Positions 4,269 to 14,679 of a DNA stretch of 53,968 bases are shown one piece after another (the first letter of the stretch is position 1; each line of letters begins with the position of its first letter). The notes beneath the pieces were generated by a model. That model was not told the origin of the DNA. It ran no database searches and saw only the letters and a list, made by a program, of their open reading frames with translations. Made by a program: the position numbers and the translations under genes. Source of the DNA: Bacteroidales bacterium. Its GTDB lineage: Bacteria > Bacteroidota > Bacteroidia > Bacteroidales > F082. The stretch covers positions 1 to 53,968 of the forward strand of contig JAZOCI010000015.1 in assembly GCA_045596465.1 (NCBI GenBank). The letters are read 5' to 3'.

Positions 4269-5345
4269 ATGAAACGAAATTATTTAAATCAAATTACATC
4301 TTTATTTTTATTGTTATTTGTCATGGCTTTCGTATCCTGTAAGAAGGATAAGTTGACAGAGCCGAAAGTTTCACAGACGAAGCAGGAAAGCAGTTTGAGT
4401 CCGCAGGCTGAATACATAGTTAAAAGGATAAAAACCTTTGAACGACAGTTAGATGACGTGAAGAGAGGAGTTTGTAGGAATGATTCTTATATTGACATTG
4501 ACAGTGCGATGTGGAATATTGAGTCGTTGTTTAACAGTACATTTTCGATGCCAGATGAAAAATATGTGGAGAAAAAGATACAAGAGCTGACATTCGATGT
4601 AAATGTTCATAGAGACAACAAACTTTCTATGTATGAAGTAAATGCCTTGTATGAAAATGTTATAAGGTCGGTGAAGGAAGCTTATATTAATGATGGTATA
4701 TACGAAGATAAAGGCTTGATGTCTATTATTGTTGATAAAGGCTATTGTGATTCAAGAGCTGTTAAGTTGAAAGTTACGGTTGTGTCAGGACGCACAGATG
4801 CGGTCAAGACTCCAACGCCTGACTTGTATTTTGGAGGTCCGTTTGATGTGAATGGCTGTTGGTATTATGGCGAATTTGGAGGTACATGTGACGATCCGTT
4901 TTTGCTGACAGATGCGGCGGAGGTTTTGGAAGAAGCCTTGAATAGAAATTACGGCAATGCATCTTCATTAGAAGGGAATAAAAATATATATGTAGATTTA
5001 ACAATGATTTCCTTGACAGGTAATGAATACAAGCGAAATAATGGGGAACCGTATGTGTTTTATAAGCTGAATTGTAATCAAGAAGATTTGTATTTAACAG
5101 GAAAAGAACTTAATGAATACTATTACTGGGAGAGACAGATGATTTTTGATGATGTTCTGAAGGATCCTCAATTTGTGCAAGTGTTGCCACAAGATCCTAC
5201 TTTTATTGAAATCAACATAGATGGTCTATCTTATATGAATGGCAAAGATATGTGTTATTATCATCGTCATGATATTTTGTATGGTACCAAATGTGAAGTT
5301 CCAAGAAGTGTAATAGGAAAAACAAGAAACATTTTGAATTATTAA
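4269..5345 (+). CDS. Hypothetical lipoprotein (no recognisable domain)
   Basis: 358 aa. Lipobox-type signal peptide LLLFVMAFVSC|KKD. First gene of a tightly spaced co-directional cluster. Confidence 0.7.
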   Translation: MKRNYLNQITSLFLLLFVMAFVSCKKDKLTEPKVSQTKQESSLSPQAEYIVKRIKTFERQLDDVKRGVCRNDSYIDIDSAMWNIESLFNSTFSMPDEKYVEKKIQELTFDVNVHRDNKLSMYEVNALYENVIRSVKEAYINDGIYEDKGLMSIIVDKGYCDSRAVKLKVTVVSGRTDAVKTPTPDLYFGGPFDVNGCWYYGEFGGTCDDPFLLTDAAEVLEEALNRNYGNASSLEGNKNIYVDLTMISLTGNEYKRNNGEPYVFYKLNCNQEDLYLTGKELNEYYYWERQMIFDDVLKDPQFVQVLPQDPTFIEINIDGLSYMNGKDMCYYHRHDILYGTKCEVPRSVIGKTRNILNY

Positions 5346-5355
5346 AATTGAAATT

Positions 5356-14300: not shown

Positions 14301-14679
14301 ATTTTTGCCTACAATGAGATTTAGAGATGTAGGTTTTGATTTGAATATGTTGGGAATCATTGCAAAAAGGTTGGTGTCGTCGTATATAACGAAAAAGACT
14401 GACTTTGGAGAAAAAGTCATAAAACAACGAGGAATGGATATAAAAGAGGCGTTGTTGCAAGATATACGTTCTGAACTTCCTGAAGCTCCTGATTTTGAAT
14501 ATGAATATTATTTTGTTGGTGCTTTCGTTGAAGATTTCAGATTATATGTTGTTGGAAATATATACGAGATGATACCGAATGAGTATGGCTTTTTTGCTCC
14601 GAAACCATATATTGATGAGGTCGTGACATTCCCGTTTAGCTATAGCTTATTTAGAACATTATTTTTTGGTGATGAATAA
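8332..14679 (+). CDS. Rhs/YD-repeat toxin of fused TcB-TcC type (SpvB N-domain, FG-GAP/VCBS propeller, RHS cocoon, RHS core, variable C-terminal domain)
   Basis: 2115 aa with a signal peptide. SpvB/TcB motif [34 protein letters not shown] (nt ~8690-8800). At least five FG-GAP-like DxNGDGxxD repeats (nt ~9547-10450). Many YD repeats ([50 protein letters not shown]). RHS core [31 protein letters not shown]...GFTGHEHL...NGRLYDP...[12 protein letters not shown], with DPTGEW at nt 13834-13851. Confidence 0.92.
   Translation: [2115 protein letters not shown]

Follow-up and report, generated by a model that had tools for sequence, protein, structure and literature searches.

We analysed a 53,968-nt stretch of DNA from a Bacteroidales bacterium (assembly GCA_045596465.1, contig JAZOCI010000015.1, positions 1 to 53,968; hereafter the window), and in particular a block of five genes that ends in one for a giant Rhs protein of the TcB-TcC type. 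The five open reading frames (ORFs) lie on the + strand at 4269-14679 with gaps of 10, 20, 21 and 10 nt between them, exactly as an earlier sequence-only reading of this DNA had laid them out. The block adjoins rpoC', DUF3467, pyrI and pyrB on one side and argS, rsmE, DUF4159, sulfatase and anSME genes on the other; our domain scan agrees with the earlier view of the flanks as housekeeping genes, pyrBI and argS among them.

The genes of the block are:
4269..5345, + strand: g1, a 358-aa lipoprotein with the lipobox ..FVSC/KKD and an invariant Cys24
5356..6858, + strand: g2, a 500-aa type IX secretion system (T9SS) cargo protein, with a type-A sorting domain at aa 424-499 (nt 6625-6855)
6879..7862, + strand: g3, a 327-aa fibre-like protein with a signal peptide, the motif QxGGCDLCGP, putative head repeats, a beta-rich middle and a C-terminal module
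7884..8321, + strand: g4, a 145-aa putative adaptor with a signal peptide (aa 1-24), a YD hairpin, an acidic linker and a sorting domain
8332..14679, + strand: g5 (Rhs), a 2115-aa TcB-TcC-type Rhs cocoon with a signal peptide (aa 1-21)

All five products are predicted from their N-termini to be exported across the inner membrane, as had been proposed earlier. The signals (four signal peptides and one lipobox) were called by eye, without a predictor program: g1 carries the lipobox, and the signal-peptide-like N-termini of g2, g3, g4 and Rhs run from a basic n-region into a hydrophobic h-region, and Gln follows the likely cleavage site. The two T9SS C-terminal sorting domains that had been claimed were both recovered as Por_Secre_tail (PF18962), in g2 at aa 424-498 (E 1.9e-12; TIGR04183, 3.2e-8) and in g4 at aa 74-136 (E 4.6e-14), the whole type-A domain of g4 spanning aa 74-145 (nt 8103-8318). 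The combination that defines type-A cargo, a Sec signal peptide with a C-terminal Por_Secre_tail domain, is thus present in g2 and g4 and missing from g1, g3 and Rhs; these three would at best be non-canonical (piggy-back) T9SS substrates.

Rhs is composed, from its N-terminus, of the following parts:
nt 8395-8616, + strand: N-domain, aa 22-95
nt 8644-9252, + strand: SpvB, aa 105-307 (PF03534, 5.8e-19)
nt 9529-10611, + strand: FG-GAP propeller, aa ~400-760 (FG-GAP_3, 3.4e-17)
nt 10702-10959, + strand: TcdB_midN, aa 791-876 (TcdB_toxin_midN, 2.4e-8)
aa ~877-1751, + strand: RHS shell (RHS_repeat, 3.9e-17)
nt 13585-13845, + strand: Rhs core aspartyl autoprotease, aa 1752-1838 (TIGR03696, 1.4e-13)
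nt 13846..14676, + strand: payload of 277 aa, aa 1839-2115 (AlphaFold2 (AF2) model, pLDDT 91.4, pTM 0.77)

With SpvB, FG-GAP, TcdB_midN, RHS and Rhs core all matched, the description of this 2115-aa protein as a cocoon resembling the B and C subunits of Tc toxins (BC cocoon) stands. Bit scores against the respective cut-offs were 68.8 to 22 for PF03534, 34 to 24.8 for PF12256, 63.2 to 26.9 for PF13517 and 51.1 to 32.5 for TIGR03696; PF05593 and TIGR01643 were also matched in the RHS shell. Residues R1795, Y1797, D1798, P1799, D1808, D1835, P1836 and G1838 of the core are invariant in 18 homologues. A search of full-length Rhs against PDB by phmmer gave nothing at E 1e-5, and a profile search succeeded: the nearest solved relatives are Rhs proteins of type VI secretion systems (T6SS), a bacterial teneurin-like protein, TcdB2-TccC3 and YenB; the best matches, 8h8a (3e-27) and 8cp6 (5e-23), are to T6SS Rhs effectors. 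Since the TcB-TcC parts are complete and the autoprotease core is intact, we expect that the 277-aa payload is cleaved and then stays enclosed in the shell.

The payload itself constitutes an orphan family. Its sequence has no match in Pfam (E<=10), PHROGs or PDB, and only 11 in 1.84 billion representative proteins; those matches that are long enough to judge lie near a C-terminus, and the remainder are short fragments. Eight helices followed by a three-stranded sheet are predicted in the AF2 model, which Foldseek could not match in PDB (best E 0.34). The net charge is -16, and the first three helices are Gly-rich and moderately hydrophobic. For comparison, a scan with one genome per species gave 80 loci encoding Rhs relatives (L-numbered), hosted by Bacteroidales, Flavobacteriales, Chitinophagaceae, Cryomorphaceae and others. 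The first ~45 residues of the payload resemble the start of unrelated payloads at other loci, and 24 of 45 related payloads open with a hydrophobic Gly/Ala-rich stretch; this common start suggests a membrane-insertion leader.

SpvB, the FG-GAP propeller and TcdB_midN are the parts by which TcB docks onto TcA, and Rhs might accordingly be read as contributing the BC subunit to a classical ABC (Tc) toxin whose TcA is encoded elsewhere in the genome. We consider this very improbable. There is no TcA-like gene in the 54-kb window, and at the 80 loci the large non-Rhs ORFs within +/-10 kb included no TcA-like neighbour (they were rpoC at loci sharing the window's flanks, and the three largest elsewhere, which were the ones scanned against Pfam, were SprA, alpha-2-macroglobulin and a CHU_C T9SS cargo). 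PAAR, VgrG and TcA families are absent from Rhs and, together with T6SS genes, from the window ORFs scanned; at the level of the locus, the absence of a TcA, T6SS or CdiB partner reported earlier is upheld. Rhs also bears a Sec signal peptide, which Tc B and C subunits are not known to have. Finally, Tc cargo reportedly needs a net positive charge, as Roderer et al. are said to have found in 2019, so that a strongly acidic payload (-16) would be unsuited to the TcA channel.

The small protein encoded directly upstream of Rhs deserves special attention. In g4 a single YD-repeat hairpin (aa ~27-42, nt 7962-8009, VSYDKNGNR) stands directly past the signal peptide, and its motif has the pattern of the YD repeats of Rhs itself. 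Residues Y32, D33, G36 and R38 are invariant in 28 g4 homologues across the phylum, the position after G36 is N in 90% or more, and a 58-sequence alignment shows this motif too. These small adaptors of ~140-185 aa share a common plan: a signal peptide ending before Gln, f.YD..GNR..r, a variable acidic linker and the sorting domain.

Family occurrence was determined by iterating profile searches across every ORF at the 80 loci. An ORF of the g4 type (YD motif plus T9SS C-terminal domain (CTD)) adjoins 56 of 64 intact SpvB-type Rhs genes, mostly directly upstream and occasionally just downstream, and a g3 homologue lies 5' of Rhs in 39 of the 59 loci with enough upstream sequence. In four loci (L017, L021, L027 and L065) g3 and g4 are fused into one ORF that runs from fibre through YD hairpin and linker to sorting domain, a Rosetta-stone arrangement that speaks for membership in one complex. 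Loci whose Rhs has the N-domain (aa 22-95) tend to have g3 upstream (counts 32/2/7/18; odds ratio of 41, p 1e-7), also among the non-syntenic loci alone (p 8e-4), and some of the apparent exceptions reflect limited search sensitivity. Altogether, the trio of g3, g4 and Rhs is conserved across Bacteroidota. The larger arrangement g1-g2-g3-(g4)-Rhs is retained by 24 loci, including the non-syntenic L016, L017, L027, L029, L034, L035, L052, L065 and L070. These data support the five genes as a real conserved module, not a chance adjacency, and the earlier proposal that the five families form one functional unit gains from their co-conservation, which extends to loci with unrelated flanks.

The sequence-only reading had called g3 a tail-fibre-like protein. 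Putative YadA-head-like repeats at aa ~35-125 favour this: profile matches in PDB are to trimeric autotransporter heads (SadA 2.5e-4, YadA 2.3e-3, UspA1 and AtaA; overall E 2.5e-4 to 1e-2). Pfam YadA_head is matched only at E 0.17, and phrog_14251, a phage family of unknown function, at 1e-7. The AF2 monomer has a pLDDT of 64, and Foldseek gave no significant match for this low-confidence model; a poor monomer model is expected for a protein presumed to be an obligate oligomer. The C-terminus is helical, with a conserved module at aa ~238-327 (W.DYVF...HLP.IPS...KIEELTLY and a coiled coil), and neither a YadA-type beta-barrel anchor (Pfam) nor a T9SS CTD is present. The motif QxGGCDLCGP at nt 6948-6974 (aa 24-32), which includes a CxxC pair, is invariant at the predicted mature N-terminus in 40 homologues; it could form a disulfide, bind metal or hold a trimer together.

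The first two genes look like accessory members of the module. Lipoprotein g1 has no match in Pfam, NCBIfam, PHROG or PDB, apart from one marginal PDB profile match (R28, E 0.0016), and was found at 24 of 80 loci, each time adjoining a g2 homologue. We considered g1 as an immunity protein and rejected it: it is missing from five relatives with the same payload and present beside unrelated payloads elsewhere. The N-terminal ~420 aa of g2 received no assignment, its PDB profile search matching T9SS CTD structures only. At locus L070 (140-7242) these accessory genes are tandemly duplicated in the order g2-g3-g1-g2-g3, followed by an Rhs fragment.

Beyond the block, the window encodes PorD (28303-29214; NF052317, 332 bits against a cut-off of 170), a second T9SS cargo, which is an M14 carboxypeptidase with a type-A sorting domain (24198-25865), and an OmpA-family protein resembling PorE/CHU_0125 that scores under both cut-offs (44663-46372). 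From the co-occurrence at 56 of 64 genes, the g3-g4 fusions and the PorD and cargo genes of the window, a T9SS link appears to be the best-supported delivery context, and the same three lines strengthen the T9SS-linked apparatus suggested by the sequence-only reading. An anecdotal case in support of the link comes from a termite-gut Bacteroidales (L079), where sprA (654-7790, - strand; PF14349, E 2.5e-172) directly adjoins, in divergent orientation, a g4-like/Rhs pair (8721-9278 and 9287-15769).

T9SS substrates need a C-terminal sorting domain, which is removed at the surface, often while the new C-terminus becomes attached to anionic lipopolysaccharide (in part after PMC7073777). Such a domain requires a free C-terminus, and the C-terminus of Rhs would be the enclosed, cleaved payload, which would account for Rhs having no sorting domain of its own. 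We propose that g4 supplies it in trans. Mature g4 would begin with its single YD hairpin and add this onto the Rhs beta-sheet, much as TcB joins TcC; its sorting domain would take the complex to the T9SS, and after removal of that domain the remaining ~50-aa peptide could tether the cocoon to the cell surface. The g3 protein would trimerise into a fibre with a YadA-like head, docked on the Rhs N-domain via its conserved C-terminal module, and the g1 lipoprotein and g2 cargo would serve as dispensable accessories. The payload is most likely membrane-active and would act on cells other than the producer's kin, and the exposed parts (shell, propeller and g4) may diversify under selection, perhaps by host antibodies, phages or target receptors. 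To this reading, an old operon for a T9SS-coupled Rhs cocoon with g4 as export and anchor signal, g3 as docked fibre and a payload for non-kin, we assign roughly even chances.

Several points weigh against it. A folded BC cocoon is ~100 A wide and the lumen of the SprA translocon reportedly ~70 A, which makes the export of an assembled cocoon mechanistically doubtful; as alternatives, Rhs could remain in the periplasm, be released in vesicles or take up its fold outside the cell. An alignment of the g4 family with the Rhs family by hhalign was of no use (probability 13%) and did not locate a docking site, and linkage alone suffices to explain a shared history of g4 and Rhs. Their interaction is deduced from sequence, as are binding, export, surface display and toxicity of the system in general. 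The fibre assignment of g3 depends on the weak profile matches and poor model described above, and the payload helices fall under classical transmembrane hydropathy (maximum 1.34). The adaptor is missing at eight Rhs loci, including three of Dyadobacter and one of Phaeodactylibacter, and the locus counts lack phylogenetic independence.

The same observations can be carried further. In a bolder version a ~50-aa YD-hairpin peptide would complete the sheet of a 240-kDa cocoon, which would be exported by the T9SS and lipid-anchored beside a trimeric fibre, by a route so far undescribed and used phylum-wide; in the 'Candidatus Limimorpha' clade it would have become a domesticated core organelle of the surface that has no immunity gene, an antigenically varying coat and a conserved, membrane-active orphan payload. 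The targets would be non-kin, for example protozoa or fungi of the gut, Gram-positive bacteria or cells of the host. We put this forward tentatively, as a possibility on the unlikely side.

The block had been described as an accessory insertion wedged between core genes, and a recently acquired island between pyrBI and argS would be consistent with a mild AT shift (GC 0.345 against 0.391), with block proteins diverged far beyond flank proteins, and with the occurrence of the same operon at other chromosomal sites in distant Bacteroidales, which indicates movement over long time scales. The block nevertheless sits between pyrBI and argS in 20 of the 80 loci, that is, in all 20 genomes with these flanks, down to an argS identity of 79%. 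Occupation of the same locus in relatives had been set beforehand as the refuting observation, and on this ground recent insertion fails. Flank proteins of the syntenic loci are 79-99% identical to those of the window (argS 79-95%) and block proteins only 26-72%; five of the genomes lack g1 and g2 and retain g3-g4-Rhs. These genomes belong to uncultured Bacteroidales of animal guts (ruminant, equine and others), and several bear the name 'Candidatus Limimorpha'. The argS homologue search reached only relatives at least 88% identical and gave no outgroup view of the pyrB-argS junction. All six metagenome contigs with an identical ArgS carry the block at 96-100% nucleotide identity. Hypervariation at strain level, of the kind produced by diversity-generating retroelements or phase variation, was ruled out by the identity of these contigs.

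Also against an island, a scan of 30 larger window ORFs outside the block turned up neither an integrase nor a transposase family, the window has no tRNA and no direct repeat flanks the block, as the sequence-only reading had stated, and the block is under purifying selection (omega 0.1-0.5). The AT shift that it had noticed is real and small: block genes have a GC of 0.345 and a third-position GC (GC3) of 0.295, the other 34 window genes 0.391 +/- 0.035 and 0.394 +/- 0.059, a difference of just ~1.3-1.7 standard deviations that is shared by neighbours (GC3 of argS 0.34, of anSME 0.32) and recurs in a relative. The recent-island explanation is thus largely refuted and, in our estimate, retains hardly any credibility; we regard the block as an operon of long standing, passed down vertically in a clade of gut Bacteroidales that comprises 'Candidatus Limimorpha' and its relatives.

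Within this clade the operon evolves in a particular way. Between the window and L008, omega was 0.13-0.26 in the block and 0.01-0.04 in adjacent core genes, with g4 the highest every time (up to 0.48); the block is under purifying selection, far weaker than that on its neighbours. Two conspecific 'Candidatus Limimorpha' genomes (L003 and L022) have flanks that are 97-99% identical (dS 0.06-0.2), whereas the stretch that begins in the 3' end of g3 and takes in g4 and the Rhs shell is just 60-75% identical, with a dS of 0.79 for g4 and 1.36 for the whole Rhs gene; the payload region is 82-86% identical. Protein identities are 49% for g4, 62% for the shell and 91% for the payload. The pattern, at ~9000-16100 in the locus, indicates that recombination has replaced alleles while the locus itself stayed in place. 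Distances of g3, g4 and Rhs in the close clade correlate with one another at 0.78-0.91 and with the flanks at 0.14-0.48. Clade-wide, conservation in Rhs peaks at the core and the start of the payload, and a hypervariable C-terminal toxin on a conserved shell was not seen within the clade, the payload being at least as conserved as the shell. The clade therefore inverts the usual Rhs pattern: the orphan payload is conserved, an immunity gene is lacking, and it is the shell and g4 that diversify. These features suggest that a surface antigen is under selection in bacteria that are abundant, and uncultured, in herbivore guts.

These data bear on two further explanations. The operon could encode an ordinary interbacterial polymorphic Rhs toxin whose neighbours are merely co-transcribed surface proteins, uncoupled from it, with release by lysis or outer-membrane vesicles and with immunity encoded elsewhere or needless as kin have no receptor. 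We hold this to be unlikely, although the intact autoprotease core and the hydrophobic Gly/Ala-rich start of 24 of 45 related payloads fit it, and variable payloads do occur at deeper levels and in non-syntenic relatives, where they are accompanied by small downstream same-strand ORFs, some for lipoproteins, and by orphan Rhs tips. In the clade itself argS starts only 56-57 nt past the Rhs stop (14679), which leaves no space for an immunity ORF; the arrangement is the same in all syntenic loci and bears out the earlier observation that an immunity gene is lacking. The payload is moreover conserved beyond the shell, and co-transcription leaves the invariant YD hairpin, the g3-g4 fusions and the association of N-domain and g3 unexplained. 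As the non-syntenic relatives keep variable payloads, small ORFs and orphan tips, the Limimorpha-type locus seems to descend from a classical polymorphic toxin system and to have been domesticated. Locus L016 (16652-21076) shows the same five-gene operon followed by small same-strand ORFs, lipoproteins among them, and two orphan Rhs tips, one with a GHEYLH (HExxH-like) motif, in a classical array of toxin, immunity and orphan genes.

Alternatively, the cocoon might be a non-toxic surface adhesin or receptor akin to teneurins, for attachment or cell-cell recognition, with the enclosed C-terminal domain in a structural role. A conserved C-terminal domain without an immunity gene, exposed parts that diversify as surface antigens do and the adhesin-like head repeats of the fibre are all compatible with such a function, and bacterial teneurin-like proteins (BiTLP) have been proposed to be surface displayed and tied to social behaviour (PMC13018210). 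Still, the invariant catalytic residues of the autoprotease imply the upkeep of a payload that is cleaved and can be released, purifying selection acts on this payload, which is among the best-conserved parts of Rhs, and the solved bacterial teneurin-like protein retains a toxic C-terminal domain (PMC13018210). On balance an adhesin seems distinctly improbable, less so than the Tc explanation.

The boundaries of the operon are marked by two candidate promoter elements:
4134..4141, + strand: candidate Bacteroidetes -7 promoter element TAACTTTG, 128 nt 5' of the g1 start codon
14702..14709, + strand: candidate argS -7 promoter element TATCTTTG, 27 nt 5' of the argS start codon

The element TAACTTTG is the sole intergenic match to TAnnTTTG on the + strand 5' of the block, and TATCTTTG, 23 nt past the Rhs stop codon, is suggested to mark the end of the operon. 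These boundaries are only suggested, since TAnnTTTG is not enriched in the whole window (72 matches, with 58 +/- 8 expected) and a sigma-70 scan does not apply to Bacteroidota. No Rfam family was matched in the window. In the leader just 5' of the pyrB start (3878), a terminator-like hairpin with a T-run (3937-3955, - strand) may be a pyrBI attenuator. Over the block and its housekeeping neighbours (3000-26000), the + strand has a strong G-over-C skew of 0.25-0.45 per kb that falls to about 0-0.1 beyond 27 kb (27000-53968); its recurrence in the relative L008 shows that it does not stem from the assembly.

The question addressed here is how the many Rhs toxins of Bacteroidota that have no PAAR or TcA partners are delivered. 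A link to the T9SS had only been guessed at in two papers (PMC8125069, PMC7073777). The putative adaptor, which joins a single YD repeat to a T9SS sorting domain in one small protein, turns this vague association into something specific and testable; ~56 related loci point to the same adaptor, and a fibre partner is indicated as well. If the proposal is true, the T9SS would gain a contact or surface weapon and an export way for proteins without a free C-terminus, and there would be a small tag for displaying Rhs cocoons.

Among the known systems close to this locus are the Tc BC cocoons (TcdB2-TccC3 of Photorhabdus and YenB-YenC2 of Yersinia), with which Rhs shares SpvB, the FG-GAP propeller, the TcdB middle part, the RHS shell and the Rhs core aspartyl autoprotease enclosing a ~30-kDa C-terminal payload; profile matches were to 4o9x, 6h6e, 4igl and 5kis, YenB being matched at aa 105-272. 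Here, in contrast, no TcA is found nearby, B and C are in one chain with a Sec signal peptide and an acidic payload, the neighbours are a fibre and proteins with a T9SS sorting domain, and the chromosomal context is one of housekeeping genes. T6SS Rhs effectors (Tse5, RhsA, Tre23 and Tse15) have the YD shell and core autoprotease in common with it; they differ in that the present locus has no PAAR, VgrG, chaperone, T6SS context or immunity gene and in that its Rhs N-terminus is TcB-like. The payload of Tse5 is said to be a glycine-zipper pore former, which resembles the Gly-rich helices of the payload described here.

The putative fibre g3 has repeats resembling the heads of trimeric autotransporter adhesins (YadA, SadA, UspA1 and AtaA) and ends in a coiled coil, but has no beta-barrel anchor, is only 327 aa long and has partners related to T9SS instead of type V secretion. 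The BiTLP are stand-alone Sec-exported YD cocoons, as Rhs is, and enclose a cleaved toxin; display at the surface, independent of TcA or T6SS, has been proposed for them. They are reported in six phyla, none of them Bacteroidota, and have polymorphic C-terminal domains with immunity genes (PMC13018210). They possess an FN-plug, an NHL propeller, a TIP domain and N-terminal self-anchoring, whereas Rhs has an FG-GAP propeller and an SpvB N-terminus, and the teneurin-like superfold is not found here, Rhs aligning to 9pt5 and 9ifo by the YD shell only (aa 1420-1538). The TANFOR toxins of Bacteroidetes are Sec-exported without a sorting domain of their own, lie in neighbourhoods rich in T9SS substrates, are hypothesised to be exported by T9SS and are polymorphic with immunity genes (PMC7073777); their delivery domain is TANFOR, not Rhs, and a dedicated small adaptor was not described for them.

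The sequence-only reading held that the architecture matches no known delivery context, and this needs tempering, as partial precedents exist. The nearest, beside the hypothesis on TANFOR toxins, are two. SpvB/TcdB-type rhs genes of Apibacter lie mostly beside genes with T9SS type-A sorting domains, and the authors inferred that they are probably T9SS-associated (Steele and Moran 2021, PMC8125069); a large rhs gene of this type is also on record for 'Candidatus Ornithobacterium hominis' (PMC6421346). In Apibacter the Rhs N-terminal domains and the adjacency to a type-A sorting domain are the same as here. That report is of adjacency only, and the adaptor architecture with its single YD hairpin, the putative fibre, the fusions, the fixed locus, the lack of an immunity gene and the conserved payload are additions of the present analysis; in the full-text literature searched, of incomplete coverage, we found no description of a YD-hairpin adaptor, its fibre partner or the mechanism. 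Overall, the system appears to work like a BC cocoon without TcA at the locus and lies outside the T6SS effector, teneurin-like and autotransporter classes. Rhs cocoon toxins with a suspected T9SS association were known before, and the locus of the window is a variant of these, not a separate category.

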